DNA from: Pristiophorus japonicus
Taxonomy: Eukaryota
Length of the DNA: 64,000 nucleotides
NCBI RefSeq assembly: GCF_044704955.1
Contig: NC_091993.1
Coordinates: forward strand, 117,118,001 to 117,182,000
Reading direction: 5' to 3'
Shown here one piece after another: positions 218-52,137 of the stretch; positions within the stretch are counted from its first letter, which is position 1; every line of letters begins with the position of its first letter. A program made the translations under genes and the position numbers. The notes under the pieces are model-generated. The model searched no databases. It saw only the letters and a program-made list of their open reading frames with translations, and was not told the DNA's origin.

Positions 218-541
218 ATTCAGAAACGTTCAGTTGTACTGGAACCATTTCGTCGTAGCCCATGATTGTAATGCCGCACCAGTAATGCCCCGCGTCCTCC
301 ATGGATAGTTCGGTTATGGTTACTGCAAACACCCCACTGGTCTGGTTGTCCATAGCAATGATCCTTTTGCCAACGGTTGCACGCTGTTTTTGAGTACGAG
401 CAATCACACTGCATGATTTTCTCTCCAACCCTTTGCACAAGTACTTCTCGTGGTGTTTGTAATATGATACACGATACTGACACTTTATGGTGACAGCTTC
501 TCCTAAGATCCCGTACACCTGTTTTGGCCCAGCTACTCCGG
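218..541 (-). CDS. Gene A exon 3, second V-set Ig domain; gene continues beyond the window
   Basis: 324 nt, CTGCAG| acceptor, T|GTAAGC donor, phase 1/1; VTIKC, KYLCKG..SC, DAGHYWCG. Confidence 0.92.
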
Positions 542-926
542 CTGCAGGTATAAGAGGACAATGTATAAGTGCTTAAGGTCATGCAGAGCACACACGGGCT
601 GTACAGAGTGAGAGCTAGCGCAGAATCGCAGTATTTTATGGCATTCGGCCCATCATGTCTGTGCTGGCTCTGTGAAAGAGCTGTCCACTTATTCCAATCC
701 CTTTGACTTTTAAAAGAGCAAAAAGTCCGTAGACTTTTAAAATATTATTTTTCAAGGATGGCCAGATCCTTCCTACTTTACCAGTCAAACTGATCCCTGA
801 AAGATCTTATGAAGTGACAGGGATAGATAATTCATTCATTTTTAGCCAAACAATTCACCTTGGTGGGCAATTTTGGGACAAATTCTATGTTCAACCTCAG
901 CTTTGAACACTAAAGCATCTTCTAGA

Positions 927-1228
927 GTTAAACCAAGGCCCCGTCTGTCTTCTCAGGTGGACGTAAAAGATCCTATTTCGAAGAAGAGCAGTGGAGTTAT
1001 CCCCGGTGTCCTAGGCAATATTTATCGCTCAATCAACATCACTAAAACAGATTATATGGTCATTATCACATTGCTGTTTGTGGGAGCTTGCTGTGCACAA
1101 ATTGGCTGCCGCGTTTCCTACATTACAATACTGACTATACTTAAAAAGTACTTCTTTGACTGTTAAGCACTTTGGGATGTCTGGTGGCCGTGAAAGTCGC
1201 TATATAAATGCAAGTCTTTCTTTCTTTT
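927..1228 (+). mobile_element. DeuSINE, 5'-truncated
   Basis: Matches 3885-4190. Confidence 0.85.
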
Positions 1229-1434
1229 CATTTAAGACTATTTTAATTTAATTCTTCTGCACTATCAGTCAAATGTACAGGTTATTTATTGTTCCTGAAT
1301 ATATAATTTAAGTCTAAGAATAATTTTTTAATCTCTGAGCAAGACCAAGAATGTTTAAACAGGTAACAGCCACAGGGAACAGTTTATTATTGGCATGCTT
1401 ATATTGTACTTGAAGTAAAATGGTGATTAATTAC

Positions 1435-1764
1435 TTAGCTTATCTTCAAGGACGTTCAATTTGACAGGAGCCATTTCATCCTTTCCCAGCATTGTTATCC
1501 CACACCAATACCACCCTGCATCTTCGAATGATAATTGTTTCATTGTCACAGAAAATATCCCACTGGTTTTGTTGTCCACAACGTTGAATCTTTCCTGCCA
1601 TCTTCTTTGAGTGCCAGCCATCACTGTGCAGGAATATCTCCGTGTTCCTTTACACCAGTATTTCTCGGAATTCCTGTTAAGTGGTGTGCTGTAGCGACAA
1701 TCGACAGTGACGGATCCTCCTAACTTTCCGTTCACCTCCTGTGGTCCCGATATTCCGTGGGAAC
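1435..1764 (-). CDS. Gene A exon 2, first V-set Ig domain (CD300/pIgR-like)
   Basis: CCAACAG| acceptor; GGSVTVDC, KYWCKG..SC, DAGWYWCG; expected donor reads ATAAG, in-phase GTAATT donor 9 nt further on (3' end less certain). Confidence 0.9.
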
Positions 1765-1805
1765 CTGTTGGAACAGAGAGCAGTGGGTTGTGTCCTGACC
1801 ATGTA

Positions 1806-2190
1806 TCCAAAGCTAATGGGGCTCGACAAGGTGGATGAAGAGAGGTTATTTCCACTCATAGGGGAAACTAAAACTAGGGGGCATAGTCTCAGAATAAGGG
1901 GCTTCCCATTTAAAACTGAGACGAGGAGGAATTTCTTCTCTCAGAGGGTTGTAAATCTGTGGAATTCTCTGCCCCAGAGAGCTGTGGAGGCTGGATCATT
2001 GAATATATTTAAGGTGGAGATAGACAGAATTTTGAGTGATAAGGGAATAGGGGTTATGGGGAGTGGGCAGGGAAGTGGAGCTGAGTCCATGATCGCATCA
2101 GCCATGATCTTATTAAATGGCGGAGCAGGCTCGAGGGACCAAATGGCCTACTCCTGCTCCTATTTATTATGATGTTATGCTCTTATAAGA
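1806..2190 (+). mobile_element. CR1 3' fragment
   Basis: TRGHSLRI..FFSQRVVNLWNSLP and CR1 3'UTR. Confidence 0.9.
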
Positions 2191-2499
2191 AAGCATGGAT
2201 AGGGAAAAAGGCCACTCAATCTAGCGAGCCCGTTCTTCCACTGACCATGTCTAATCTGGCCTATTGTAGACAACTGAATGATACCAAGAGCACTACTTAT
2301 CAAGTCCCTTCATGATCATAAAGCTACAGAGTGCAAATCATTCAAAAGGCCAGACTGAAATGTTAGTGACTGGTCATTTGTAACTGGTCACGTTCTCTAG
2401 ATGTCTGTATGAATTTGTGTTCTACTTGAGTGTTCCACACAAAAATCTTCCACCAATCTTATTACTATGGTTATGTTCAGTCAAAAGTCCTCCTCCCAG

Positions 2500-2930
2500 T
2501 CACATGAAAAATCAGAGGTTATACCTCTCAGGAAAGATTGAACAGGCTGGGGCTCTTTTCTCCAGAAAAAAGACTGAGGGTTGAGCTGATAGAGGTGTTC
2601 AAGATTATAAAAGAGTTTAATAGGATAGACATAGAGCAGATGTAGGCGAGACCAGCCCGAGGGGCCATATACGTAAGTTAGTCACTAATGAATCCAATCG
2701 GGAATTCAGGAGAAACCTAACTACCCAGAATGTAATTACCCAGAGATTGATCAGAATGTGGACCTCGCTACCACAGGGAGTGGTTGAGGCGAGTAGCGTC
2801 AATATGAAGAAGAAAGGATATGTTGATGGGGTTGGATGAAGAGGGGTGGGAGGAGTTCATGTGGAGCATAAATACTGACAAGGACCTGGTGGGTTGAATA
2901 GCCTGTAAATACTTTGTTAATAATTTGTAA
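2500..2930 (+). mobile_element. Degenerate CR1 3' fragment
   Basis: Similar to the 44990-45426 copy. Confidence 0.7.
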
Positions 2931-3734
2931 GTAAAAATATAAAATAATAAACACATGTTATTCAACCCAATAGCTATGTTGATTTTATTATCCTAAATAA
3001 TAAACATAAATTAAAAATTGATGATTCAGTGGAGCCGATTTTCATTCCGCTGCCTGGCGGGAATAGGGCAGTAGCATAATTAAAATGACAGCACAGCACT
3101 TACCGCCCGATCCCCGTCAACATCCAGGTCACCATCATTTTTCCAGGGGCCGTGAAATAGATGGCCCAGGTGCCTGCCACAAACACGGAAATTGGGATCC
3201 TATGCCATCTATAGGACCCTGATGCAGTTTTATGAGTACCAATGGGTGGCGTATGTGTCGCGTACCTCTGCGCATTGGTACTTGGTATCGAGTAGCCTAA
3301 CCAGCAGTCCTTAAAGGGCCGCTGCAGCCCACTCAAATAAAGTATTACAGGAAAGGGTCTTAAAATGATTTTTATCAGATGGGGAGTATCACTAAAACTC
3401 CTCCCAGTCCCATAAATATCAGCGCCCCACCCCCACTTTTGTCTGGCCTTCTGGAACCCTCCTCCCCCCTTTAAATTACCTGCATGAGGCTGGGCTCTGT
3501 AGTGGAGATGCCAGATCTCCCAACCCTTCTGATTGGCGAGCTGCTCCAAAAGCGCGAGCAGTCGCTGGAAATGGATCAGACCTTGGGCCACCTCCACCGG
3601 TTAGGTGGCAGGGCCAATCTGCCCGCCTCCCACCCACCTCCCACACACCCGAGGGAATCGGTCACTTGGCCATCTATCCCATTAAATGAGAACCTAAACT
3701 TAACAAAATTAAAAGTAAATCTTATAGCTCTTGC

Positions 3735-4190
3735 TGTGGCTTAGTGGGTAGCACACTAGCCTCTACGTCAGAAGGTTGTGGGTTCAAGGCCCACTCCAGA
3801 GATTTGAGCACATAAATCTAGGCTGACATTGCAGTGCTGAAGGAGTGCTGCACTGTTGGAGGTGCTGTCTTTTGGATGAGATGTTAAACCGAGGCTCCGT
3901 CTGTTCTCTCAGGTGGATGCAAAAGATCCCGTGACATTATTTCAAAGAAGAGCAGGGGGAGTTATCCCCGGTGTCCTGGCCAATATTTATCCCTCAATCA
4001 ACATAACAAAACAACAGATTATCTGGTCATTATCATATTGCTGTTTGTGGGAGCTTGCTATGCGCAAATTGTCTGCTGCGTTTCCCACAATACAAGAGTG
4101 ACGACACTTCAAAAGTGCTTCATTGGCTGTATAGCGCTTTGAGACGTCCGGTGGTCGTGAAAGACACTCTATAAATGCAAGTCATTTTCT
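3735..4190 (+). mobile_element. Full-length tRNA-derived DeuSINE (SacSINE1/AmnSINE-like)
   Basis: A-box TGGCTTAGTGG, B-box GGTTCAAGGCCC, conserved body repeated >10 times in the window, L2-like tail CTATAAATGCAAGT. Confidence 0.85.
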
Positions 4191-4480
4191 TACATATCAT
4201 TCCTCGATTTAACAGTGGTAATGTCCTGAGTATGGTTTGTGGGGCATTGGGGCGGGGTTGCAAGAAATTGGGTGAATAATATGGGGTAAAATGACTAAAC
4301 ATTTGGAGAAACAAGAGTTCACCAGAAACAAAAAAAGAAAGAAGATGCTGGAAGCACTGAGCAGGTCAGTCAGCATCTGTGGAGTGAAACAGGCAAGTTA
4401 ATGTTTTGTGTGAAACTTCATAACTGCAAAATAAAAGTTGGACAGGTGTGTTAATACAATCAGAAAAAGGAAAGGGGGAA

Positions 4481-4530
4481 TGTATATATATATATACACA
4501 CATATATAGATACATATATATTATATATGT
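4481..4530. repeat. Imperfect (TA)n microsatellite
   Basis: Seen directly. Confidence 0.8.
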
Positions 4531-5109
4531 AAAATAAATAAAAAGCAGGCAAACCCAGAGAGGAATATGAGTAGAATAATGTAACAGATCAATCTCATTC
4601 AAGCAATGGATAGAAGCATTAAAGAAGCAAAAGGTGGGTGAATAGCAAAGAAAGTGGGAGGCCTGGGGAAGTCCCAGATGTGGGCGTGTGGCAGGAAGTG
4701 ATTGGGCAGGTGTTCCATCTCCTGCGGTTTCACAGGAAGCCAGCTGGCAGTAAGCCTCCCACTTTGCTGTTCACCACCCCGATTGCTTCCTTAATGCCTT
4801 AAATCTTCCATCCATTATTTGACGATGATCCTCTACATCATTGCACTCAAGATGCCTCTGTTTGTTCGTTATGTACAATTTCCGCCCTCCTTTTTATCAT
4901 TGCATCGATATATGCTTGCCTGCCTCTCTGAAGCAGGGTCCGCACCTGAAAGGTTACGGGCCAGAATTTGATGGGAAAGAAGCGATGAGTTTAATGCACA
5001 GGCTGTTAATAGTGCGGACTCATTGATCATACGTTCAAGAGCTGACCTTCCAAGATTCCACACTCCTTAATCTTCTCAAAGTACCAGACGGGAGGTTACA
5101 AGAGAAAAT

Positions 5110-6880
5110 GAAAGTGTAACTAGTGGCAGGGTAGCAAACTGGATTAAGCATTGGTTAGCGGAGAAAAACATAGTCGGAGTTAAGGGAAATTTTTCAGTGG
5201 CTGGTGATGGATAGTGTGCAGCTTTCAGGATAGTGTTCTGGGACCACTTTGGCTCACTGTGTATATCAATCGTTTGGATGTAGGTCTAGAGGGAATGGCG
5301 TTGATATTTACAGATGATACCAAAATAGGAGGAATAGTTAATTGACTCGAAGATGGGGCATGGGCTAATAAGTGGCAGATAGAATTCATTGTGAATATGA
5401 CATGCATTTTGATAAGAGAAACTTCACTAATTATACTCTGAATGGAAATAGGTTCAGCACTGTAGAGGAACAGAGGGATTTGGTTCACTTGACATTAAAA
5501 GCACCACCTTAGGTTGCAAAGGCTGTAAAAAAACGAATGGAATTCTAGGATTTATCACAAGAGGTATAGAATATAAAAGCCAGGAGGTAATGTTGAGCTT
5601 ATATAAAACCTTAAGGCCCCAGTCAGAGTACAGTGCAGTGTTGGGCTCCACGCTATAGGATAGACATTGAGGTTTGAGAGAGGGTACAGTGCAGATGCCT
5701 GGTGTGAGGAAATACAAATACAAAAATGACTTGAAAAACTGCGACATTTTTCAATAGAACAACGCAGATTATGGAGTAACTGTTTAAAGAAAGAAATATT
5801 TGCATTTATATTGCGCATTTATCATGATCTCAGAACGTCCCAAAGCACTTTACAGCCAATGAAGTACTTTTGAAGTGTAGTCATTGTTGTAATGTGGGAA
5901 ATGCGGCAGCCAACTTGCACACATCAAGCTCCCACAAACAGCAACGTGATAACAACCAGATAATCTTTTTTTGTGATGTTAATTGAGGGATGAATATTGG
6001 TGAGGACACCAGAGATAACTCCCCTGCCCTTCTTCAAAATAGCATCCTGGGATCTTGTATGTCCACGTGAGAGAGCAGACGGGATCTCGATTTAATGTCT
6101 CATCCAAAAGACGGTACCTCCGATAGTGCAGCACTCCCTCAGTACGGGCCAGTCCACACTGCGATATGTGTGCGCACTAGGTCCGTGCAGCAGAGCAGGT
6201 CTCCAGTCGTCTTGGATAACTCTTGCCACTGGACCAAGGCCTAGCTCTGTCAAGCCCGTGTGGTGGCTGATGTGCAACGGCCACCCCACGTTAAAAAAAT
6301 CCACACACAGGCATCTTCCACCTTTCAGGATGTAGTTCGGGACCTGGAATATTAGGTCCTTCATTGAAACACCTGTGAACTCATCCTTTTTTGGTGTGGA
6401 TACAAGTCATCCTCGTTTCGAGGGACCACCTATGATGATGATGACTGAGAATTTTTGTGCTTGAGTCTCTGGAGTGGGGCTTGAACCTTCTGACCTTCTG
6501 ACTCCGAGTCGAAAGTGCAACCAACTGAGGCACGGCTGATGAAAGAATGGGACAGGGCCGATAGAAGAAGGCTGTTTCCAGTAGTTGAGGGGTCAAGAAG
6601 GAGCAGCCATATTTACAAGATCGCATGTAAGATTTAGAACAGAAGAGAGAAGAAACTTATTCACACAGAGAATTGCCAGGCTGTGGAATTTACTTCCAGG
6701 CTCTGTGGCTCAGGCAGGAAATGTCAACATTCAAGATTAGATTAGATAGGTGGGTGAAGAGAAAGAGATGAAAGAGATATGGGGACAGGGCGAGTAAATG
6801 TGATTGGAACTATCACATTTGGCAAACACTGGCAGAGATTGGTTGGGCCAAATGGCCTTTTATAACCACTGCGTATTTCT
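5110..6880 (+). mobile_element. Old CR1 RT fragment interrupted by a minus-strand DeuSINE (5790-6540), itself interrupted by an RTE-tailed element (6146-6442)
   Basis: FTDDTK-like remnant; SINE body resumes after the insertion; ATG-repeat tail at ~6432-6443. Confidence 0.75.
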
Positions 6881-7711
6881 CTGTCCGTGAGTTAGCCTTT
6901 GAGAACATCTACGTGCTTGCAATAATCCAGTTCCAGCAGAAAATCCACCCTCTTGTTTTTTAGTCCGAACACTCAGATTCATGTTAAAATATTACTGGCA
7001 GGTCCATTCTTGAACCTTTCCACAATGACCTAAAGTAACCACTTTTATATAATCTGATAAGAAAAGCGATAAAATCCAGAGCTTATTTTTGTTGCAAAGT
7101 GCCGTCGAACAAAGTTAGTAATAACTTACAGCAATTTACGTGCGCGCTGTACACGAAAGGTGATTTTGCAAATGACCTATCTGAAGTGTTTTTGCTGCTG
7201 ACTCATAGGGTCAGGACTGAATTCCAGGCAGACCATCTCGCGACCGTTGAATCAGGACTTTAAATGGGTCACCAATGTCATTGACATATCATCGAATTCC
7301 ATCTGATTGTAAGAGTAACCAACAGTCCAGATCTGTCCCCTTGTCAAAGGTTGGTTGCCATGGCTGTTCTTTTCAGTAAGTTACAGATTTGACTAATCTC
7401 GGCTTGTGCCACAGAACATTAGATTGTGAATCGAACATGCATTTCTTTAGTGCGATGGTTTGAGCTCATAGCAAAAGTATTACCTACAGGCCACCGACCA
7501 TGACTTGCTTTTAAATATTGAACCATAATGGCCTTAGCCCAGAATATTCCTTAAAACTAACATCTCTCTACATATACTTTAATCAGCAATTTTGGGGACA
7601 AAACTGTTTATTTTCAGCTGCTTTCTCAATCACAGCTACTGGTTCTATATTCTTTCTGGCCACAGTTGGAGACCTGATGTTAGAATGACTAACCTGTGCA
7701 ACCAACTTCAC

Positions 7712-7878
7712 CTCCCCCACCTCCCCACCCCCCAACACCACCTCCCCACCCCCCAACACCACCTCCCCACCCCCCAACACCACCTCCCCACCCCCCAACA
7801 CCACCTCCCCACCCCCCAACACCACCTCCCCACCCCCCAACACCACCTCCCCACCCCCCAACACCACCTCCCCACCCC
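7712..7878. repeat. 21-bp C-rich minisatellite (CACCACCTCCCCACCCCCCAA) x ~7.5
   Basis: Exact tandem units. Confidence 0.95.
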
Positions 7879-7984
7879 GCCGCCCCACCAGATGCTCAGT
7901 GTGATAGATGGTGTCTTTCTCAGCCTTGAAGCTATTTTTCCAGACTTAAATATTTTACATGTAACAGACGAATATTTGAAAGAA

Positions 7985-8270
7985 AAACTTGCATTTATAT
8001 AGCGCCTTTTGGATATCCTGAAGCGCTTTACAGCCAATGAAGTACTTTTTGAAGTGTGATCACTGTTGTAATGTAGGAAATGCAGCAGCCAATTTGCGCT
8101 CAGCGAGCTCCCACAAACAGCACTGACCAGACAATATGTGTTTTGTTATGTTGATTGAGGGATAAATAGTGACCAGGTCACTAGGGAGAACTCCCCTGCT
8201 CTTCGTCGAAATAGTGCCATGGGATCTTTTGCGTCCCCCCGAGAGAGCAGACTGGGCCTCGGTTTTAGGT
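7985..8270 (-). mobile_element. DeuSINE, 5'-truncated
   Basis: Reverse complement of the SINE body. Confidence 0.85.
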
Positions 8271-8949
8271 CTCTGCATTTTACAGCTTATGCCATAAGTG
8301 AGCAAAGCTTTATAAGTTATGAGTGACACAATTGAATTATGAAGGTTTTATTCAAGCAAGTACTAAGTTGCCTATTCCATTTTGCCTTCTGTTGTTGGAA
8401 TTAATGCTGAGATAATTATGTTTCTTGTTATTTTCAATTCATTTTTAAGTTTTACTCTAGTTTACTATTAGCAAGGAATATACTATAATATGAGCCATGT
8501 GAGGTGCTTCACATACCTCTTTTGGCACAACTAGCCCCGATCTTAAAAATGACCTTACCATCGGTGAATGTACTATTATGTGAATATATGAACAATGACT
8601 GACAGGGAAAGACCCTCTTGTCCCACATAATTGAGACACTTTGTATATCACAATATATACATACTGCACCCAACCCAAAACCACGAAAAAACAAATAAAA
8701 ACACAGGCTAATTTTGGGGAAGAAAATCTGAGAAATTCATCTCCGAACCCCCTAGCTGATCAAACCTAAACCAGAAGACCATTCTGTGTAGCACCTACCC
8801 TTTTGTACAGGGTGATCTCCGCAGTATGCAAAAACAGGTCCGGCTTAAAGGAATTCAACGAATCGGCATCCACCGCACGTGAAGTATTCAATTTACAGGG
8901 CCTCTTCATCTTAGAATTGGAATTCTTTCACAAGTTAGTCATAAGAAGT

Positions 8950-9190
8950 GTGGATAGAATCTACCTCGCGCAGAGCTGGAGTTGTGCTGAGATGGTGGCG
9001 GGTAGCATGCTGCGGGATGGAGTCGAGGACACTCGTGTCAAAGGCAGAGTCTCGGTTAAGGAGGTCCTCGAAGTGCTGCACCGGGATTTCCAATGGGTCC
9101 TGACTGCCTCGGTGTCCTTCATGAGTGTCTCCCCATTCTTGGCCAGCAGTGGGGTGGGCCTTGGGTGCTTGGGCCGCAGATGGGCTTGAC
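8950..9190 (-). mobile_element. RTE-clade LINE ORF2 internal fragment
   Basis: HFEDLLNRDS..VLDSIPQ..PALREV resembles the RTE linker region. Confidence 0.65.
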
Positions 9191-9359
9191 TGTGGTGAAG
9201 AATCCTTGCACATCATGGCTGTCGGCCAGCTGCTGAAACTCCTGTGCTTTCTCCACCCATCATCTATTCTTTAGGTCGCGGGTTTTTTGTTGGACCTCAG
9301 CCTTCAGCCGTCTGCTTCATGGCTTTATAACTCCTGACTTCGTCACAGCCTTGATCTAG

Positions 9360-10500
9360 ACATCGATGCAAGGACTGAATACTGGAGAGCTGTTTGTGGC
9401 ATTAGGGCAGCATTCAACCAATATAGTACCAAGGACTCCTCCCAAAACTGAGGGCCAAAAGGAAAATCCTCCTGTGGCCGGAGTCATACCTGACAAAGGA
9501 AGGTGGTTGTGATAGTGGAAGGCCAATTATCATAGAACTTGCTACAATATTGTTGCTGCCATTCCTCAGGGCAACGTCCTAGGCCCAACCATCCTCAGAT
9601 GCTTCATCAATAGTCTCTCTGTCATAAAGTCAAAGGTGCGTCTATTTGCTGATGATTGTACAGAGGGCAGCTATATTCATAACTCCTTTGACAATGTCTA
9701 AAGCAGGAGCTAGACAGCATCCAGGCTTGGGTTGATGACTAGCAAGTAACATTTGCACCAAATGAGGACCATCTCCAACAAGAAAAGGCCCAATGACCTC
9801 TCCCTGACAACAGCAAAACCAAGTCGTCAACATCCACACCGTGGGGCACCATTGACTAGAAAGGAACTAAACTAGCCATATCGACACAGTGGCCACTAGT
9901 GCAGTGCAGAGGTTGGGTATTCTGCAATGAGTGGCCCCCTCCTGACTTCCTCAAGACCTCTCCATTAGTTACAAGGCTCCAGTCAGGGGTAGGATGGAAA
10001 ACTTAGCCATTGCTAGGAAAGGTGCAGCTCCAACAATACTATAGGATCTCAACACCTTTCAGAATAAACCAGTCTGTTTGCTTAGCGCTGCTATAATGGA
10101 GTTCAATAGCCATCCATTCCACCACCATGGCACTGTGGTTGCAGCACGTACTATTTATAGTATGCACTGTAACCACTCAGCAAGGTTTGTTCAACAGCAC
10201 CTCTCGGCCCCTTAACTTCTACCTCTGAGAACAACAAGGACAGCGAATAAATGGAAACGCCATCACCTGCAAGGAACCCTCCAAGTCACACGCCACCCTG
10301 ACTTTGACATATAACTGCCATTCCTTCATCGGTGCTGGCTCAATATCCTGGAATTCCCTTCCTGGCACCATTGTGGGAGCACCATCACCACAAGGGCTGC
10401 AAGTGCTCACGGAGAAATACCAGCACAACGTTCTCAGGCCAACTACGGATGGGCAATAAATCCAAAATTGGCAACATTGCCAACATCCCGAAACAAACAA
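9360..10500 (+). mobile_element. Old CR1/L2-superclade LINE (RT to 3' end)
   Basis: Decayed PQG-VLGP-IF-FIN and FADD; tail GGGCAATAAA...CACATCC also at ~10870, 33240 and 54490. Confidence 0.7.
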
Positions 10501-11220
10501 TGAAAGAAAATCTAGCAAATTCATCGTCGGAAAGAAGCTCAGATCTTGCCACTGCAGTCTCCTGCGGTAAGTGTGGTCCTACTTTAGCTATAACGCAGCT
10601 ATAGTTTATGGTGGGAATTGGGTAGTAGTCGTTTCTGTTCCTGTGTTATCAGCGCTATATAAATACAAGTTGTTGTTGTTATCAAATCATGCAAGAAATT
10701 TCCAATCACAAAATTGTTTTTTAATTGCTTAATGTACTAGGAAAAGAGCAATAATCTATTGACATCACATAACCTTCAGTTTAATTTATTAGTTCAGTGT
10801 AATTATCATGGACTGCTGCGGTTCAAGAAGGCGGCTCACCACCACCTTCTCAAGGGCAACTAGGGACAGGCAATAAATGCCGGACTTGCCAGCGATGCCC
10901 ACATCCTGTCACTGAATTAAAAAATCCACTGAACTAATTAATTCAGCAGGGCTGAAAATCTGCAGATCCACTCCACCACTCTAATAATAGCCACTCGGGT
11001 ACGCGTTTGACCCCGTTGGAATAACAAGGATCAGGCAATTTACATAGTGAATGGGTGCCACGCCCCAGTATTGGTGCAGCTGGGCACCCACTGGAGAGAG
11101 GGGTGGACATTGTCGAGTTGTCAGCGAACCGCTGAGGTGGATTACTGGCAGGCCCAGTGGAAGAAAGAATAAAGATTGGCCCCTATTCCACAAAGGTCTT
11201 TTTCCCTTGCAGTCTCTGAT

Positions 11221-11500
11221 CATAAGAAATAGGAGTAGGAGTAGGCCATTTGGCCCCTCGAGCCTGCTCCGCCATTTAATAAGATCATAGCTGATCTGAT
11301 CGTGGGCTCAGCTCCACTTCCCTGCCCACTCCCCATAACCCTTTACTCCCTTATCGCTCAAAAATCTGTCCATCTCCACCTTAAACATATTCAATGATCC
11401 AGCCTCCACAGTTCCATAGATTTACAACACTCGGAGAGAAGAAATTCTTCCCCATCTCAGTTCTAAATGGGCGACCCCTTATTCTTAAACTATGCCCCCT
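11221..11500 (-). mobile_element. CR1 3' fragment
   Basis: RGHSLRIRGRPFRTEM and CR1 3'UTR. Confidence 0.85.
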
Positions 11501-11759
11501 GTCGGGGTTGCTCTGAGAAAACCGTGTCTTTACCAAGCTGATGGTCCCCATGCCCACCTTCCAGAAAGCATTGTGCATCAACCAATACATTGGGAGTGCC
11601 AAAGCGGGTGAAGTTATCTTGCCAGGCAGGCACTGGAACTGCCCTACTCCCAGCCTCTCCCCACAAACTAGAACACCGCTCTAATGAGGCAAAAACCAGA
11701 GTAACAAGAGCCTCCTCCTTCAGCAGCCCCAGCAGAGCTGAATACCCTGAAAATGTCGT

Positions 11760-12354
11760 GGGGGAGAAGTTTGGGTGGATAGCGCCCCCTTGCGAGGGTC
11801 GGAACAGAGGCGCTAAAGGGTTGGGGAGCCGCGAGCGCCGGCATTCGCGTCGCTTGGCAAATTCCGTGTGCCGGTACTGGCGGCGCTGAGGAGTATCGCC
11901 CGGGAGCATCGCGCCGGATGGAAAATTTGGTTTGCGCTGCACCCGTAGCGCCCCCTAGTGACCGCGCTAGAGGAAGCTCGCGTGCAGAGCTGTCCTGGGG
12001 CACTACGGGAAGGAATGACTGCATGAGGTAAGTGTGACTGATATTTGTTTTTTGCAATTTAACTCTATTTGGGGTGAGTAATGTATCAGGTCTTTTTTGG
12101 GTTTTTTTTTCTGATGCGTTTTTTTGCAGGGAGGCCTCTCTTAGGGTGCTACGTAGCCGGCTCTTTAGTACAGGATATTCAGTTGCTCACCCGGCCTAGC
12201 GCCCTAAGAGAGGTGTGGAACGTTTCCCTTAGCGCTCTGCTCCACTCTCAGGGAGCAACCACTGAATTTTGTGGCTGCCGTCGCTAACCATTTTCAGCCG
12301 CTAAATTTAGCAACCGCCCGACATTAAAAAATCTTCACCCGAATTTCCAGCCCC
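11760..12354. mobile_element. CpG-rich non-autonomous element (probably Harbinger-group MITE)
   Basis: GGGG..TTT / AATTT..CCCC ends; internal homology to 13476-14103. Confidence 0.6.
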
Positions 12355-13018
12355 ATCAACAGTACATCTAATGAGTAGAAAAACCACCACAGAATCAGAC
12401 TAAAATCTAAAAGCTGGCAGGGTCTTGGAGGGCAGAGAGTATAAAAGTGACATGGAAAGATTAATGTTTAGCACTAGCATACTTAATGAACTCTCACAAC
12501 AACCTCGTCACTTCAATGTGTCATAGAAATATTATATGTGACATGATGAATGAAACTGACAGAAATGAATCTTTGATTTTCAGCAGGCAATTGCTTAGTG
12601 CATTCATATAATCCATTAATGCTAGCCGGGTAAAGTAACGGGACTGTCATAACTTCTTAATCATTAATATTCTAAATTTGCTGTCATTTCTATGCTAATA
12701 CTTTGTTAACATGCATAATATTATCTGAATCTACTGAATATAAAAACACATCTTCCTGCATTCTGGAAATCGGACTTTATTTAAAAAGTTAACCTTTATG
12801 GGCACAACCATAGATCCCTATGGACAAATAAAACATTGCATGGTCCGTCAAATACAAGATGTAGTTTTTAACAGTAAAACTCCTTGTCTTTGCAAGCACC
12901 CAAGGAGAAAGGTCACAAAGTAATTTGTCAAACCTGGACTCCGATAGGTGAAACTCTGCCATAACCAGAGGTGTAAGCCTAGCTTGTTATAAAAGTTCTA
13001 TTCTATTTTCTTCCTTAC

Positions 13019-13067
13019 CAGGTAACGAAACAGTGATGACGATGATAGTAAATGCAATGTTTCTCAT
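13019..13067 (-). CDS. Gene A exon 1 (signal peptide MRNIAFTIIVITVSLP+G)
   Basis: ATG, hydrophobic core, phase-1 donor CTG|GTAAGG; joins exon 2 to give ...VSLPGSHG-ISGP, parallel to gene B. Confidence 0.75.
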
Positions 13068-21558: not shown

Positions 21559-21750
21559 TTACTTTTTGAACACAATTGTAGAATACTCCATTGGTTCTGA
21601 AGCAGGAGTCTCAATAACTGAAGGCTTGATTGCCTCTTGACTGTTGGAAGGTTTCACGTTATCGTAAGTAGGAGCGTCCTCCTGAGGGCGATCGCTGGGC
21701 AGAATCGTCACAGTGGCATAAGTAACTCCTTCTGCCAGCTCTTTGGACAA
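21559..21750 (-). CDS. Gene B exon 6, terminal cytoplasmic exon with ITIM and two further Tyr motifs
   Basis: CCTTCAG| acceptor phase 0; VTYATV (ITIM consensus), PTYDNV (YxN), MEYSTI; TAA at 21561-21559. Confidence 0.9.
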   Translation of the reverse strand: MSKELAEGVTYATVTILPSDRPQEDAPTYDNVKPSNSQEAIKPSVIETPASEPMEYSTIVFKK

Positions 21751-22694
21751 CTGAAGGCAAAGAGTACAAGGAAGTGATTAATGGGAATGGAGCAACGAAT
21801 CAATTCAGCATTAAAATACAAAAATGAAAATTTAGATAATCTTTTATTTTAGAAAAAAACACTTTACATTACTGTACTATCTGTAAATAGGGAGTCAAAT
21901 CGATATCAAATGCAACTACTTGGGTTAATCAACAACTTTGTTTTTGGAAAGAATTTTAACCATTGCAGCACCACTCTCAAGTTCAAGGGATCACTGGCTA
22001 TTGGTCGGGCCTCCGTCACAGTTTGATGTATAAAAATGCCTCAGTAATTGACTTTTTCCAGTTCTGACAAAGAGTCACAGACCTGAAACGTTAACTCTGC
22101 TTCTCGCTCCACAGATGCTGCCTGACCTGCTGAGCATTTCCCAGCATTTTCTGTGTTTATTTCAGCAATTGACCTGGTTGCATATATTACATGGCCAAGT
22201 CTCTTAGCTTCAAGGCTGGAGTCCAGCCAGTGAAAACCCAGGCCCCAAAATTCTGCTTGGGCCTTGGGTGCTTCTGCAACAAATGGAGAGCAGGAAAATG
22301 GGGAGGTGCCTCACAGCTGAAAATTTCCCCAACGGGGAAGGGAGGAAGAGGGCAAGCCTTCCACTACTCCCCTCCCACCCCATGTCAAGGGGACATGTTG
22401 AGGGTGTGGGGGGGGGGGGGGGAGCTCACAGGCTACCCTGATAATACTGACCATTAACTCCTCGGGAAGCCTGAGCAAAATTTTCACCAGCTGAGAGCCG
22501 GTGAGAGTCCCGCTGAGGCCCTGGGGAAAGGCCCGAGAACTCGCGCAGCTGGAGGTGATCGATTACTTTAAGTGGCCCAGTGCTCCCTTGAGTTACAATT
22601 CTCCAACATGCCTTTACAGGCAAGGGCTGCCCTCCTTGATTTTACAGTGGTGGCCATGCTCTGGATTCAGGAAGGGGCCTGGGCCTTTGTCCAT

Positions 22695-23055
22695 CATAGG
22701 GACAGGAGGAGGCCATTCAGCCCCTCGAGCCTGTTCCGCCATTCAATGAGATCATGGCTGATCTGCGACCTAACTCCAAATACCTGCCTTTCCCCCATAT
22801 CTCTCAATACCTTTGTTTAACAAAAAGCTAATCAATCTCAGATTTAAAATCAACAATGGACCTTGCATTGACCGCCATTTACAGAACAGAAGGCCAAACT
22901 TCTGCCACCTTTGTGTTTAGAAATGTTTCCTAACAATACTTCTGAAAGGCCTGGCTTTAATTTTTAGACTATGCCCCCTAGTCCTAGATTCCCCAACTAG
23001 CAGAAATACTTTCTCTCAATCTACCCTATCTGTTCCCCTTAATATCTTAAAAACT
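22695..23055 (-). mobile_element. CR1 3' fragment
   Basis: Similarity to the other CR1 3' ends. Confidence 0.7.
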
Positions 23056-23239
23056 GCAAGCTCAGGTCTTGCTTTGCCTCAATGGCTGGGGGAAGAGAGG
23101 GATGGGGGAGGGAAATTGAATTTTGGCCTTTGCCCCAAGTTTTGCTAACCAATCCTCCCACATACACAATAAATATTGGGAGCCAGGCAGAAGAAGAAAC
23201 CAGGTAGTTCAGAGATTCCAAACTGCAAGCTGTAGGGAT

Positions 23240-23505
23240 AACAACAATAAATTGTATTTATATAGCGCCTTTAACGCAGTAAAACTTCCCAGGAGTGTTA
23301 TAAGGCACAAATTTGACACCGAGCCACATAAGGAAAAATTAGGGCAGGTGACCAAAACCTTGGTCAAAGAGGTAGATCTTAAGGAGTTTCTTAAAAGAGG
23401 AAAGAGAGGTGGAGAAGTTTAGGTATGAAATTCCAGAGCTTGAGGCCGAGGCAACAGAAGGCACGGCCTCCAATAGTGGAGCGATTATCATCAGGGGTGA
23501 TCAAA
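23240..23505 (-). mobile_element. L2-like LINE 3' end
   Basis: (TTG)n tail and GGCGCTATATAAAT end shared with the DeuSINE. Confidence 0.75.
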
Positions 23506-23605
23506 ACCTTAAAAACAATAGGATAGACCTGATTAGGTTAAAAATAAATAAATTAAAGTTAAAAATTGGATAAGGAATGGGAGAAAAAGAAAATAGTGAG
23601 GATGA

Positions 23606-25842
23606 AGATGGGTGACTTTAATATGTATATAGATTCGGCTAACCAAACTGGAAACAATACGGTGGAGGAGGATTTCCTGGAGTGCATAAGGGATGGTTTT
23701 CTAGACCAATATGTCGAGGAACCAACTAGGGGAGAGGCTGTCTTAGACTGGGTGTTGTGTAATGAGAGAGGATTAATTTGCAATCTCGTTGTGCGAGGCC
23801 CCTTGGGGAAGAGTGACCATAATATGGTGGAATTCTACATTAGGATGGAGAATGAAACAATTAATTCAGAGACCATGGTCCAGAACTTAAAGAAGGGTAA
23901 CTTTGAAGGTATGAGGCGTGAATTGGCTAGGATAGATTGGTGAATGATACTTAAGGGGTTGACAGTGGATGGGCAATGGCAGACATTTAGAGACCGCATG
24001 GATGAACTACAACAATTGTACATCCCTGTCTGGTGTAAAAATAAAAAAGGGAAGATGGCTCAACCGTGGCTATCAAGGGAAATCAGGGATAGTATTAAAG
24101 CCAAGGAAGTGGCATACAAATTGGCCAGAAATAGCAGCGAACCCGGGGACTGGGAGAAATTTAGAACTCAGCAGAGGAGGACAAAAGGTTTGATTAGGGC
24201 AGGGAAAATAGAGTATGAGAGATAGCTTGCAGGGAACATTAAAATGGACTGCAAAAGCTTCTATAGATATGTAAAGAGAAAAAGGTTAGTAAAGACAAAC
24301 GTAGGTCCCCTGCAGTCAGAATCAGGGGAAGTCATAACTGACAGTCATTTTCCAACATTCCATTGACTCTGGATCAGTTCCTATGGAGTGGAGGGTAGCC
24401 AATGTAACCCCACTTTTTAAAAAAGGAGGGAGAGAGAAAACAGGGAATTATAGACCAGTCAGCCTGACATCGGTAGTGGGTAAAATGATGGAATCAATTA
24501 TTAAGGATGTCATAGCAGCGCATTTGGAAAGAGGTGACATGATAGGTCCAAGTCAGCATGGATTTGTGAAAGGGAAATCATGCTTGACAAATCTTCTGGA
24601 ATTTTTTGAGGATGTTTCCAGTAGAGTGGACAAGGGAGAACCAGTTGATGTGGTGTATTTGGACTTTCAGAAGGCTTTCGACAAGGTCCCACACAAGAGA
24701 TTAATGTGCAAAGTTAAAGCACATGGGATTGGGGGTAGTGTGCTGACATGGATTGAGAACTGCTTTCCAGACAGGAAGCAAAGAGTAGGAGTAAATGGGT
24801 ACTTTTCAGAATGGCAGACAGTGACTAGTGGGGTACCGCAAGGTTCTGTGCTGGGGCCCCAGCTGTTTACACTGTACATTAATGATTTGGACGAGGGGAT
24901 TAAATGTAGTATCTCCAAGTTTGCGGATGACACTAAGTTGGGTGGCAGTGTGAGGTCGAGGAGGATGCTATGAGGCTGCAGAGTGACTTGGATAGGTTAG
25001 GTGAGTGGGCAAATGCATGGAAGATGAAGTATAATGTGGATAAATGTGAGGTAATCCACTTTGGTTGTAAAAACAGAGAGACAGACTATTATCTGAATGG
25101 TGACAGATTAGGAAAAGGGGAGGTGCAACGAGACCTGGGTGTCATGGTACATCAGTCATTGAAGGTTGGCATGCAGGTACAGCAGGCAGTTAAGAAGGCA
25201 AATCGCATGTTGGTCTTCATAGCGAGGGGATTTGAGTACAGGGGCAGGGATGTGTTACTACAGTTGTACAGGGCCTTGGTGAGGCCACACCTGGAGTATT
25301 GTGTACAGTTTTGGTCTCCTAACTTGAGGAAGGACATTCTTGCTATTGAGGGAGTGCAGCGAAGGTTCACCAGACTGATTCCCGGGATGGCGGGACTGAC
25401 ATATCAAGAAAGACTGGATCAATTGGGCTTGTATTCACTGGAGTTCAGAAGAATGAGAGGGGGTCTCATAGAAACGTTTAAAATTCTGATGGGTTTAGAC
25501 AGGTTAGATGCAGGAAGAATGTTCCCAATGTTGGGGAAGTCCTGAACCAGGGGTCACAGTCTAAGGATAAGGGATAAACCATTTAGGACCGAGATGAGGA
25601 GAAACTTCTTCACCCAGAGAGTGGTGAACCTGTGGAATTCTCTACCACAGAAAGTTGTTGAGGCCAATTCACCAAATATATTCAAAAGGGAGTTACTACT
25701 AAGGGGATCAAGGGGTATGGCGAGAAAGCAGGAATGGGGTACTGAAGTTGCATGTTCAGCCATGAACTCATTGAATGGCAGTGCAGGCTCGAAGGGTCGA
25801 ATGGCCTACTCCTGCATCTATTTTCTATGCTTCTATGTTTCT
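23606..25842 (+). mobile_element. 5'-truncated CR1, same subfamily as 49059-54004, with ~250-bp internal deletion near 24340
   Basis: ORF2 peptides nearly identical to those of the full copy; TTCTATG tail. Confidence 0.95.
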
Positions 25843-25894
25843 AAAATTAAAATATCTTTTTGGTATTTAATAATTTTTTAATTTTAAGTAAGCA

Positions 25895-26026
25895 TGACAT
25901 CTGTGTGCCAGGAACAAAGCAAAAGGGAATACTTATAGCAGAATTTTAAGTAAAATAATTTATACTTTTAATTCAAATTCTGCTGTAAGTATTCCCTTTT
26001 GTGCTGTTCCCTGCTCACAGATATCA
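25895..26026. other. 132-nt imperfect palindrome (hairpin with ~61-bp stem, 10-nt loop)
   Basis: CAAAAGGGAATACTTATAGCAGAATTT pairs with AAATTCTGCTGTAAGTATTCCCTTTTG. Confidence 0.85.
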
Positions 26027-26131
26027 AGGTTAATACTTAATTTTATATGCTTTGTTGGGAATATTAGACTTATGAAATTTTCACAGGAGCTTTGAAATTA
26101 CATTGCAGAATAATAAGTATGAACATTTGTT

Positions 26132-26435
26132 AGAAACATAGAAACATAGAAAATAAGTGCAGGAGCAGGCCATTCGACCCTTCGAGACTGCACCACAATT
26201 CAATATGACCATGGTTGATCATGCAACTTTAGTTCCCCACTCCCACCTTCTCGCCATAACCCCTGATCCCTTTAGCCGTAAGGGCCACACCTAACTCCCT
26301 GTTGAATATGTCCAACGAACTGGACTCAACAACTTTCTGTGGTAGAGAATTCCACAGGTTTACCACTCTCTGGGTGAAAAAGTTTCTCCTCATCTTGGTC
26401 CTATATGGCTTACCCCTTATCCTTAGACTGTGACC
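26132..26435 (-). mobile_element. CR1 3' fragment
   Basis: AGAAACATAGAAACATAG tail, matches 49059-49360. Confidence 0.85.
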
Positions 26436-26489
26436 ATTTGAAACTCCTTTCCTGCTCTTTCAAACAGGTTGACAACTCACAAAAATGGC

Positions 26490-26950
26490 TGCAGTCCCAT
26501 TTCCCCATTTCCCCTGTGCTCGCTGATCTACATTGGCTCTTGGCCCAGCAATGCCTCAAATTTTAAAATTCTCAACCTTGTTTTCAAATCCCTCCTTAAT
26601 CTTGCTCCTCCGTATCTCTGTGACCTCCTCCAGCCCTATAAACCATCCGAGATCTCTGCGCTCCTCCAATGCTGGCCTCTTGCGAATTCCCGATTTTCAG
26701 CGCTCCACCATTGACGGCCGTGCCTTCAGCTGCCTAGACCCTAAGCTCTGAAATTCCCTCCCTAAATCTCTCTGCCTCTCTACAGCTCTCTTCTCCTTTA
26801 AGAGGCTCCTTAAATCCTGACTCTTTGACCTATCCGATTATCTCCTTCTGTGGCTCGGTATCACAATGTGTTTGATAACCCTCCTGTGAAGCGCCTTGGG
26901 ACGTTTTACTACATTAACAGTGCTATATAAATGCAAGTTGTTGTTGTTGA
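26490..26950 (+). mobile_element. L2-like LINE 3' end
   Basis: FKIL.LVFKSL..LAPPYL, RSLRSS, GRAFS; (TTG)n tail. Confidence 0.85.
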
Positions 26951-27063
26951 GAGAGAAATTTCAACTGAATGCATAAACGTGTACATCTTTGATCCCAACA
27001 CACCACTTCAGGCTAGTAGATTTAGATAAACCACCCTGTTTCAATGAGAGGTTGGAGCCTTAC

Positions 27064-27119
27064 CACAGAGTTCGACTTTGGAATAGAATTTTCTATTGTT
27101 GACTCTTTCTCTCTGTTAT
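27064..27119 (-). CDS. Gene B exon 5, cytoplasmic (DNREKESTIENSIPKSNSV)
   Basis: TTTTCTAG| acceptor, GTG|GTAAGG donor, 56 nt, phase 1 to 0, open frame linking exons 4 and 6. Confidence 0.8.
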
Positions 27120-27849
27120 CTAGAAAATACAAATGTGAAGGTAATGAATGAAGCCAAGTAAAACAGCAGGAAGATTCACAATGTAACTCTTTTTTCAGTT
27201 GTGTTAAATGTCATTTAAAAAAATTTATTGCACTTTTTAATATTCCCAAGTCAATATTAGATGAAAAACTGGGCTCAATTAGAGTATTGAGCTAATTTTG
27301 GGGAAATTAAACTGGACTATACTGCACGACAACTTCAGCCATTGTGTAACAGTTAAAACCTCGCCTCACAACAATTCATTGCATAATAAAACATTGACAT
27401 CAAACATGGGTTTGTATTGGTTACTTATTGTTCGGTAAAATGCTTCCAATCTGTGTCAGGCAGTTATATTAAGACCCATTATATTTTCCGATATTGTTTC
27501 ACTGCTCAATCACCTTTCATTAACTTTTAATTGGATCCTGCAATTGTTTTTATATTTAGCTATTAGTAGGATTTTTGCTAATTGTGTTTTCTTGCGTATT
27601 AAATATTTGATCTCTTGTGGCAATTCTCTTGGGCAAAAGTGTAAAAACAACTCTGCCCCAATTTGCTTTCCTGTTTTTTTTTCTCATCTTTCCCACAGCA
27701 GCTGTTGATGATTCTGCCATCGCCATTTACACCCTATCTAGACTCATCTTTTGTTTCTTAACTTGCCCCATTACCATCTCCTTTTGCCTTGCAACATCAT
27801 CTCTTTTTGTCTCTTAATCTGTCCTGCCTTCCACCCTATCTTATATTGA

Positions 27850-28615
27850 ACCATAGAAATTTACAGTACGGAAGGAAACGATTTCGGCCGACAAGAGGTA
27901 TTCAAGCCTAACCCCACTTTCCAGCTCTTATTCCGTAGCACTGTAGGTTACAGCACTTCAAGTGCACATCCAAGTATCTTTTAAATGTGGTGAGGGTTCC
28001 TGCCTCTACCACCCTTTCAGGCAGTGAGTTCCAGACCCCCACCACCCTCTGAGTGAAGAGATTTTCCCTCGTATCTCCTCTAAACCTCCCCCCAATTACT
28101 TTTAATCTATGCCCCCTCGTTGTTGACCCCTCTGCCAAGGGAAACAGAGGTCCTTCCTATCCACTCCATCCAGGCCCCTCATAATTTTATACACCTCAAT
28201 CAGGTCTCCCCTTAGCCTCCTCTGTTCCAAAGAAAACAGACAAGCCCATCCAATCTTTCCTCATAGCCAAAATTCTCCAGTCTAGGCAACATTCTTGTAA
28301 ATCTCCTCTGAACTCTTTCCAGTGCAATCACATCTTTCCTGTAATGTGGTGACCAGAACTGCATGCAGTACTCCAGCTGCGGCCTAACCAGTGTTTTATA
28401 CAGTTCAAGCATAACCCCCCTGCTCTTGTATTCTATGCCTCAACTTATAAAGGCAAGTATTCCATATGCCTTCTTAACCACGTCATCAACCTGGCCTGCT
28501 ACCTTCAGGGATCTGTGGACCTGCACTCTTTTTTCCTCTACACTTTTCAGTGAGGTACCATTTAATGTTTATTGCCTTGCTTTGTTAGACCTCCCCAAAA
28601 GCATTACCTTACACT
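27850..28615 (-). mobile_element. CR1 3' fragment inserted into a Penelope-like 3' end (27690-27840 and 28615-28735)
   Basis: LVRPQLEYC, FTQRVVGVWNSLP; flanks match 40850-41200. Confidence 0.8.
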
Positions 28616-28987
28616 TATCTCTAACTTTTCCCAGTTCTGACGAAGGGTCAGCGACCTGAAACGTGAACTCTGTTTTTCTCTCTCTACAGATGCTGCCTGA
28701 CTTGCTGAGTAATTCCAGCATTTTCTGTTTTTATTATATATGTAAAAAAAAGTCTTAGTCTTACTGCAAAAACTGACTGCTAGCTTCTAAAATGGTGACA
28801 TATCCCCCAAAAAGGTGACAGACATAAATATAGACCTTATGACACATGGGCTCATCTTAACTTAAGCTGCAGGGATACCCAACATTCCATCACTTTTATT
28901 GCAGGCGGACAAATCTAAGTTACTTCCAGCTCCTTCCAGGCATACTACAGTGCTGACTTATGGCATGGCAGCTCACAATCACCTCAT

Positions 28988-30018
28988 GTAAGAATCAGAG
29001 AATGGTTACAGCATGGACGAATGCTATTCGGCCCGTTGAGCCTGTGCCGGCTTCTGCAAGAGCACCTCAGCTAGTCCCACTCCACCCGCCTTTTCCCTGT
29101 AGCCCTGCAATTTTTTTTCTTTCAAGTACTTATCCAACTCCTTCTTGAAAGCCACGATTGAGTCTGCCTCCACCACCCTTTCAGGTCGTGCATTCCAGAT
29201 CCTAACCACTCGCTGCATTAAAAAGCTTTTCCTCATGTCGCCTTTGATTCTTATGGCAATCACCTTAAATTTGTGTCCTTTGGTTCTTGACCCTTCCGCC
29301 AATGGGAAATGTTTCTCTCTAGCTACTCTGTCCAGACCTCTCATATTGATAGCCATAAAACAGGGAGTCAGCTGTGTGACTGATTGGTCACTTGTCTACA
29401 GACTTATTGGGTTTCCCATCCCCCTCGTTTATGCCGGTCATGTTTTGATCCTCTTCCCCTGGACAGATAAGAACAGAAGAAATAGGGGCAGGAATAGGCC
29501 ATACGGCCCCTCGAGCCTGCGCCACCATTTAATACGATCATGGCTGATCCGATCATGGACTCAAGTCCACTTCCCTGCCCGCTCCCCATAACCCTTTATT
29601 TCCTTATCGGTTAAGAAATTGTCTATCTCTGTCTTACATTTATTCAATGACCCAGCTTCCACAGCTCTCTGAAGCAGCGAATTCCACAGGTTTACAACTC
29701 TCTGAGAGAAGAAATTCCTCCTCATCTCTGTTTTAAATGGGCGGCCCCTTATTCTAAGATCATGCCCCCTAGTTCTAGTCTCCCCCATCAGTGGAAACAT
29801 CTTCTCTGCATCTACATTGCCAAGCCCCCTCATAATCTTATACGTTTCGATAAGATCACCTCTCATTCTTCTGAGTAGAGGCCCAACCTACTCAACCTTT
29901 CCTCATAAGTCAAATCCCTCATCTCCGGAATCCAGCTAGTGAACTTTTTCTGAACTGCCTCCAAAGCAAGTATATCCTTTCTTAAATATGGAAACCAAAA
30001 CTGCACGCAGTATTCCAG
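28988..30018 (-). mobile_element. Two adjacent CR1 3' fragments (28988-29345, 29465-30018)
   Basis: ORFs 29024-29356 and 29561-29866 encode the CR1 RT C-terminus. Confidence 0.85.
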
Positions 30019-31267
30019 AAGCTGCCAATGGATTAAGATGTCTTTTTCTTAGCCTTTCCAATGGGTGTAAAAATGTTTGTCACTTGCCTTTAAATGCCTG
30101 CATCCCTTTAAATTGCACTCTGCACCCGTCCAACGCGTCACCTGGCGCTGTGAATCATTAAACACAAGGGCTGATTCACAAGCAATTGCCAACTACAGAT
30201 TACCATTCAGGTGAGATTTGTACGATTGAACTAACATATTAATTATATGGAAATTGGCCCCATTAACTGGTCATTTGTTTCAGTTATTGTTTGCAGGGCC
30301 TTGCTATAAATTGTTCTTTTGTTCTTTACAACCCAACCCCTCCCCCTTTCAGCACTAAGAATCTGTTACATTTCGAACTATTGTCAGTTCTGACGAAGGG
30401 TCATCGCCCTGAAACGTTAACTCTGTTTCTCGCCACAGATGCTGCCTGACCCGCTGAGATTTCCAGCATTTTCAGTTTCTATTATAAATTGTATTATTTG
30501 GCTGCCCTATTTGTCTACTTAACAATGATGACACTTCAAGAGTAATTCATTGAATGTAAAGTGTCTCGGGGTGACCCGAGGGTGCTGTATAAAAGGAATC
30601 CCTTTTTGTTTTCTACATGCTTTTGGAGTTGAGGACTATCTGCCTCCTCTAATTATTCTCGAAGCTAAGAGCACAGAAGACTAACTATTCGCAGAACAAC
30701 AAATATGCAATTTGCAGGCGATTCCGCCTGAGATTACCCATCAGGTAATTAGATAATAGCACTTCTATTTACAAAGGAATCATTTAGTATTTAATAACTC
30801 ATTCATTCATGATATTTGTTCGAGATATTATAATTGTTTCGTTTCTCCATCCAGTACCAAACCGGAGCATGGTTTTCACTCTCCACACACAAATGATCGA
30901 ACAAATACAGACAAGTAGTCCTTTTAATTAAGAAATAAAATCACCTTTGTGTTGCTAACGTGACTCCCAAGCATTTTAAAATCATCAGCGAGAAACAATA
31001 CACGTTGCTATGTGCCACATACAAATTGCCGGAATGTTACTGGCAATCCTGTCACCATTATATTGTGCTGAATAGACAGTGCAACAGAGTTTCTATTCTT
31101 CCAAAGAACTACAGGAAGTACCGTCACTTTTGGCTGACTGCTTCACTGAGATTAGTGCCAGATTGGAATGAAAATATGAGGAGATTTCTGTGCTGACGAG
31201 ACGTACGTACTGCTGAACTGCAGATATATGTAGAACCTCAACTGCAAATCAAGACACGATCCGTGAA

Positions 31268-32240: not shown

Positions 32241-32338
32241 AGAAGGTTGTTCCATATCACATGGTTGGTTTTCGTCTAGTTCCTTTGAAAGATAGAATGA
32301 CTCCGCTGCATGAAAATTGGTTAAGTTTCTGAACTTAC

Positions 32339-52135: not shown

Positions 52136-52137
52136 TA

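Follow-up and report, generated by a model that had tools for sequence, protein, structure and literature searches.

A chondrichthyan CD300/pIgR-family receptor from Pristiophorus japonicus with a candidate CD300lf-like phospholipid pocket

The 64,000-nucleotide (nt) stretch of Pristiophorus japonicus DNA analysed here (contig NC_091993.1, hereafter the window) contains a leader exon and two tandem V exons, V1 and V2, of a receptor gene of the CD300/pIgR family that is called gene A below. The exon sequences, the predicted structures and the orthologues favour, with moderate confidence, a reading of gene A as an old receptor, present throughout the chondrichthyans, that may bind phospholipids in the manner of CD300lf and serve in tethering, in uptake or as a decoy, and that would not work like pIgR. 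It is probably not the long-sought shark antibody transporter.

Gene A lies entirely on the minus strand, and its leader, V1 and V2 exons were recovered at the positions given in an initial annotation made from the DNA alone, with the 11.3-kb intron and the spacing of 0.9 kb between the V exons that had been described (Table 1). The two peptides quoted there, one from each V exon, are both present in open frames. The leader matches the N-termini of orthologues (71% over 17 residues to protein P0003) and both V exons are recognized as Pfam V-set domains (E 2e-15 for V1 and 2e-12 for V2). The double-disulfide V domain typical of the pIgR/CD300 family was confirmed by the Cx7C pair, which is seen in 11/11 V1 and 18/18 V2 domains. 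V1 and V2 are 51% (tblastn) or 53% (global alignment) identical to each other and 35-37% identical to the V domain of the neighbouring gene B, in agreement with the closer resemblance that had been claimed for the pair. A tblastn search with the three V domains detected no further V exon in the window (next-best E 0.039). The window stops 217 nt past V2, and the domain count and transmembrane (TM) segment of gene A are taken from orthologues. Ahead of strand D, at about 1575-1590, V1 is three residues shorter than its counterpart in most of the shark orthologues, a gap shared by Mustelus. Contigs of runs X22-X24 match intronic repeats only and are uninformative on expression.

The floor of the phosphocholine cleft of CD300lf is formed by the Cys36-Cys44 disulfide, Tyr34, Trp89, Gln41, Arg42 and Met100; the Ca2+ ligands are Asp98 and the carbonyls of residues 94 and 96, and Arg42 orients the phosphate (PMC6166816). 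Tyr34, Trp89, Gly96, Asp98 and Met100 all have counterparts in V1, and V2 holds the pocket residues together with a basic residue at the position of Arg42. The Trp, Gly, Asp and Met of V2 were placed on residues 89, 96, 98 and 100 through spans of equal length (query residues 2-43 on residues 66-107 of 6C74), the register being that of alignment spans and not of a residue-level alignment. Tyr34, Trp89, Gly96 and Asp98 occur together in 10/11 V1, 16/18 V2 and 13/15 tetrapod CD300-like domains. The same combination was found in none of the domains of gene B (0/6) and gene C (0/4), the receptors with immunoreceptor tyrosine-based inhibitory motifs (ITIMs) that flank gene A, and in none of the first domains (D1, 0/30) or other domains (0/69) of pIgR/FcAMR. 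When the Cx7C pair and Met100 are added to these four residues, the full set is seen in 10 V1 and 15 V2 domains. In sharks, rays and the chimaera alike, the pocket residues show almost no variation.

Sequence and structure comparisons point in the same direction. Against single domains of the PDB, V1 scored 81 bits with mouse CD300lf and 57 bits with human pIgR D1, the corresponding values for V2 being 77 and 43. Whole-chain PDB E-values, which favoured pIgR, were discarded as evidence since the scores of its five domains add up. The predicted models of V1 and V2 have predicted local distance difference test scores of 93-94, and 996 chains were aligned to each of them. CD300lf came first for V1 (Z 19.7, root-mean-square deviation (rmsd) 1.6, 105 aligned residues), with Z values of 17.3 for trout pIgR (5F1S) and 17.0 for human D1, and also for V2 (Z 18.4, rmsd 1.9, 105 aligned residues), with 17.2 and 16.5, respectively. 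Trout pIgR is thus the next structural match after CD300lf.

Cluster look-ups and searches with three queries (V1, V2 and the protein of S. torazame) yielded orthologue models for 10 species of shark, five rays and the chimaera Callorhinchus. The shark domains are 64-80% identical, domain by domain, to those of the window. The common plan begins with a leader and the two domains V1 and V2, followed by a stalk of about 25 residues (range 21-34), an uncharged TM segment and a tail some 65-90 residues long. Two V domains are present in nine of the 10 shark species and in the chimaera, and three in S. torazame. Among rays there is one in the sawfish and the two mantas, two in the stingray and four near-identical copies in the little skate, and the ray domains entered in the tree described below fall with V2. 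Four Logan proteins, from contigs of 1.1-1.3 kb, carry in one frame a whole or partial V domain, the stalk, the TM segment and the tail identical to the skate model, from which we infer that these contigs are spliced transcripts.

A charged residue was found in the TM core of none of 13 orthologues, although the edge of one TM window picked up an Asp. The tail of gene A can be aligned with those of genes B and C, and the two ITIMs of the latter fall on decayed motifs in gene A. The proximal ITIM corresponds in sharks to a Tyr motif without the hydrophobic residue at +3, and the terminal one, which shows a Tyr-to-Phe change in the chimaera, has been truncated away in sharks; both positions are lost in the ray tails. 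A consensus ITIM elsewhere in the tail was seen in one of the eight aligned tails of gene A (S. torazame) and also in S. canicula, YxxPhi motifs are present in six of the eight, and the Tyr motifs of the tail vary between lineages. Because the ITIMs are decayed and the TM segment is uncharged, gene A appears to be neither an inhibitory nor a classical activating member of its cluster.

In the phospholipid-binding reading, each V domain would form a cleft between its CC' and FG (third complementarity-determining region, CDR3) loops, where a Ca2+ ion held by the Asp would grip the head group of a phospholipid displayed, for instance, by dying cells, lipoproteins or microbes. The tandem V copies may add avidity or reach. 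Since the TM segment has no charged residue, pairing with adaptors of the DAP12/FcRgamma type would not be expected, and the decay of the ITIMs suggests little signalling by gene A; both points lead to the proposed role in tethering, uptake or as a decoy. Gene A would act beside its inhibitory neighbours B and C and the paralogues with an Arg-bearing TM segment.

The initial annotation had put forward a paired partner receptor, which would make gene A the activating partner of the inhibitory gene B. Gene A is an adjacent paralogue of gene B in the same orientation and without intact ITIMs. However, the absence of a charged residue from the 13 TM cores speaks against a classical activating partner, the ectodomain shares only the 35-37% identity given above with that of gene B and has a different FG loop, and a better candidate exists in whale shark protein P0022, whose last V domain clusters with gene B in the tree (98/94) and precedes a TM segment that bears an Arg, and whose accession adjoins that of the gene A model. 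Such a partnership is scarcely probable at all.

The immunoglobulin (Ig)-binding features of pIgR are located in the CDR1 of D1 (Arg31, His32 and Arg34), the CDR3 of D1 and the cysteines of D5; Arg34 is retained from amphibians to mammals, and the extra D5 cysteines, which run from CDR1 to the DE loop, provide the covalent link to IgA (PMC4786434, PMC10680632). An equivalent of Arg34 was found in 0/11 V1 and 2/18 V2 domains (with a CDR1 of 13 residues) versus 30/30 tetrapod D1 domains, a set chosen by its CDR1 length of 15-16 residues, which leaves only the Arg count as independent evidence. The CDR1 of V1 has 13-14 residues. In sharks it has 14, one above the usual 13, with an Asn-Arg pair that resembles D1 and speaks for a reading in which V1 corresponds to D1 and gene A is orthologous, or directly ancestral, to tetrapod pIgR/FcAMR. 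However, the chimaera V1 has a plain CDR1 of 13 residues, so the longer loop looks shark-derived. Extra cysteines of the D5 type were not found in V1 or V2, each of which has four Cys. The multi-domain pIgR-like architecture first proposed is not supported in the tetrapod sense: most orthologue models have two V domains (nine of the 10 sharks) and not the four or five of tetrapod pIgR, the D1 and D5 features are missing and the pocket is of the CD300lf type.

The phylogeny was calculated with 94 domains from 39 proteins and the window (31/68 and 8/142 proteins from two search sets) and omits near-duplicate domains, Stegostoma, most birds, bona fide teleost pIgR, mammalian pIgR and MDIR. A single clade (96/97), separate from that of D1 (98/91), unites V1 and V2 with their relatives from rays and the chimaera, and the internal exon duplication that had been suspected finds support in this grouping. 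In approximately unbiased (AU) tests, a grouping of V1 with D1 was not rejected (p 0.11), and neither was one of gene A with the whole set of pIgR/FcAMR domains (p 0.25), which leaves some room for tetrapod pIgR orthology. As far as these sequences go, the tree backs the internal duplication and seems to decide nothing on deep orthology. With the sister relationship of V1 and V2 and the Arg34 counts on the other side, we consider a direct line from gene A to tetrapod pIgR very improbable.

Several points weigh against the phospholipid-binding reading itself. Eight of the 15 CD300-like rows used for the pocket counts are near-duplicate bat CD300LG sequences, and position C+8 is non-homologous where loop lengths differ. 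At the position of Arg42, where V2 is basic, V1 has an aromatic residue. The Trp/Gly/Asp trio also appears in 7/36 ray-finned pIgR-like domains. The motif of the pocket probably goes back to the ancestor of the family, so its presence shows retention and not current function. For V2, trout pIgR is just 1.2 Z units under CD300lf and its rmsd is lower (1.4), and the models were built on alignments with CD300-type rows, a possible pull toward CD300. In the free tree gene A and tetrapod CD300 are not grouped together, and the AU test did not reject this grouping with the tetrapod CD300-like domains either (p 0.35), no hypothesis being separated from the others. The lipid binding of gene A is a prediction.

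Gene A could also work as a carrier in the style of teleost pIgR, that is, as a CD300-grade receptor co-opted for moving polymeric IgM, IgNAR or IgW across epithelium or endothelium, with the Tyr motifs of its ITIM-less tail used for sorting. Its layout, with two V domains and, in the orthologues, an uncharged TM segment, matches that of teleost pIgR, its best structural match after CD300lf is trout pIgR and its aligned tails mostly carry YxxPhi motifs. In addition, CD300LG binds IgA and IgM. Teleost pIgR likewise lacks the Ig-binding CDR residues of mammals (PMC4786434) and may be nearer to CD300 (PMC11955638), and the failed D1 test therefore lowers the probability that gene A is a pIgR far more than the probability that it works like one; moreover, CD300LG has been linked to traffic across capillary endothelium (PMC11349297). 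On the other hand, a domain number of 1-4 and tail Tyr motifs that vary by lineage would be unusual for a receptor dedicated to transport, the preserved lipid pocket points to a different ligand, and the gene lies within a cluster of inhibitory and Arg-TM receptors. The C-terminus of the shark J-chain is poorly conserved, which makes transport of the mammalian kind unlikely (PMC4279169), and the ancestral V1 donor is lost in this genome. We hold this carrier function to be quite unlikely; if real, it would not depend on the D1/J-chain mechanism of tetrapods, and the CD300/pIgR family would have supplied Ig carriers on more than one occasion.

A closer look at the V1 splice donor qualifies the phase 1/1 claimed for both V exons, which stands for V2, with canonical sites, and fails for V1, where AT is found at the ancestral donor. 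The last V1 exon base homologous to the V2 donor is 1444; from there the intron opens with AT versus GT in V2, and the next five intron bases are identical between V1 and V2. Only one in-phase GT is present in the surrounding 60 nt or so, after base 1435 and thus 9 nt downstream; it lacks both the G at -1 and the G at +5, a weak combination for a donor. Its use would append three codons to V1. A DNA contig of run X1 spanning 1205-1790 has 0 differences from the window, which gives no obvious sign that the AT is an assembly error; run X1 may, however, be the source sample, and rare alleles are lost from contigs. V1 has no other signs of decay (terminal branch 0.10 versus 0.08 for V2), and its skipping would preserve the reading frame. 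This genome would then yield either a protein of two domains, with three extra residues in the linker through use of the cryptic donor, or, by V1 skipping, a one-domain protein like that of some rays. The ray domains in the tree are all V2-type, and this genome could be losing V1 independently of the rays.

The donor defect, together with the unsettled deep relationships and a gene whose remainder lies beyond the window, leaves room for a reading in which gene A belongs to a CD300-like lineage with a protein ligand or an adhesion role, or in which the copy of this genome is non-functional. We regard this as unlikely but not negligible, as the frames of V1 and V2 are open and their terminal branches short, V1 skipping keeps the frame and the pocket residues are hardly altered among species. 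The phospholipid-binding reading is retained as the preferred one.

Table 1. Features of gene A and of its neighbour gene B in the window
Feature	Position	Strand	Details
Gene A leader exon	13019..13067	(-)	49 nt, ATG to phase-1 GT donor
Gene A intron 1	1765..13018	(-)	11,254 nt; repeat and LINE-like pieces (LINE, long interspersed nuclear element)
Gene A V1 exon, ancestral length 321 nt	1444..1764	(-)	open frame, 4 Cys, Cx7C CC' pair
V1 donor region	1429..1443	(-)	ancestral +1 is A, giving AT for GT; weak cryptic GT
Gene A intron 2	542..1443	(-)	902 nt; high-copy repeat pieces near 613-726 and 898-1239
Gene A V2 exon	218..541	(-)	324 nt, AG acceptor, GT donor, phase 1/1, 4 Cys
Gene B, complete in window	21559..48039	(-)	single-V receptor, two motifs of the ITIM/ITSM type (ITSM, immunoreceptor tyrosine-based switch motif)
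Gene B leader	48000-48039	(-)	
Gene B single V	38223-38555	(-)	without Gly96/Asp98 pocket residues; FG loop differs from gene A
Gene B stalk exon	near 37872-37908	(-)	
Gene B TM exon, uncharged	near 32340-32440	(-)	
Gene B tail exons	near 27061-27120 and 21559-21750	(-)	two ITIM/ITSM-type motifs

Gene B has its own stop codon about 8.5 kb ahead of the ATG of gene A; a GT overlaps this stop codon at 21559-21564. An exon-like extra piece of gene B near 30086-30148 matches the Heterodontus model only, of eight compared. The gene order B-A-C was read from fused models, and A-C is already present in the chimaera. Many database models (530-770 residues) fuse gene A with the upstream gene B or the downstream gene C, and these fusions give rise to long pIgR-like database entries with inflated length and domain count. 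In several sharks B-A or A-C are joined as proteins with three TM segments. The stretch 13068-13224, upstream of the gene A ATG, matches the joining segments of the fused models and is hence conserved, and the three-TM models are probably artefacts on a conserved 5' region. Read-through polyproteins of B+A or A+C were considered and rejected as probable model artefacts, the joining stretches being different in each species.

The mixture of receptors expected of a CD300/pIgR-family cluster could be seen among the orthologue models, with genes B and C of the ITIM type and paralogues with an Arg-bearing TM segment. Besides P0022, proteins P0107, P0119 and P0121 are shark or ray relatives with an Arg-bearing TM segment, some of which have a second, non-V Ig domain, and several lie on contigs equal in length to those of gene A or gene B models; these four are candidates for activating members or MDIRs of the cluster. 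No non-family protein gene was identified within the window. Long remnants of LINE reverse transcriptases, which we take to be CR1-like from their resemblance, are found at 23500-25900, 49100-53100 and 58900-60500, and there are tandem arrays with a 58-nt unit at 53272-54009 and with a 41-nt unit at 55361-55844.

PMC4016189 and PMC13337447 describe pIgR as absent from cartilaginous fish, in line with the initial annotation, in which a true pIgR was given as not established there, and the latter, a 2026 review, treats the movement of antibody into shark secretions as an open question. Further background is given in PMC9321927, PMC10801876, PMC10081254, PMC7916673 and bioRxiv 10.1101/2022.04.21.489081. 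No paper on gene A or on the B-A-C split was found in our literature search, most subscription journals being outside its reach. Database names make gene A look like the answer to Ig transport in sharks, and much of the multi-domain length behind this impression comes from joined neighbour models. If the phospholipid-binding reading is correct, the lipid pocket would be as old as the jawed vertebrates, and the cluster would show a split of work in which gene A keeps the pocket and loses the ITIMs and genes B and C keep the ITIMs and lose the pocket.

Among known systems, the closest to gene A is mouse CD300lf (CLM-1; 6C74, 1ZOX and 6C6Q), its best single-domain match in both sequence and structure, with which it shares the double-disulfide V domain, the Cx7C pair and Tyr34, Trp89, Gly96, Asp98 and Met100. 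Unlike CD300lf, gene A has two tandem domains, a CDR1 longer by one residue in sharks, decayed ITIMs and a V1 without Arg42. Mammalian CD300 proteins have a single V domain, whereas gene A has two here and in most sharks and a single one in three of the five rays. Zebrafish pIgR-like proteins have also been linked to phospholipids (PMC4384117).

Tetrapod pIgR/FcAMR shares with gene A the domain family and the tandem V exons in phase 1. Tetrapod pIgR has, however, 4-5 divergent domains, and gene A is without the long CDR1 with Arg34, the D1-type CDR3 and the D5 cysteines. Teleost pIgR/PIGRL resembles gene A in having two V domains that lack the D1 CDR residues of mammals and in its multigene clusters, and the teleost plan of two V domains, TM segment and tail is that of the shark and chimaera orthologues. 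In gene A, unlike teleost pIgR/PIGRL, V1 and V2 are close sisters derived from a chondrichthyan duplication. The family of CD300/TREM/pIgR-like proteins in cartilaginous fish is known as MDIR (PMC3031540). The skate MDIRs (ABC86796, ABC86797 and ABC86799; PMC3031540), considered here by their description, are like the gene A cluster a multigene set of activating and inhibitory receptors, and no protein named MDIR came back among the results of the orthologue searches. The orthologues of gene A themselves are deposited in RefSeq/GenBank as models of 'polymeric immunoglobulin receptor-like' or 'CMRF35-like molecule 5' (XP_007897677.1, GCB70550.1 and XP_051890740.1), automatic names that are carried by many models joining gene A to gene B or C.

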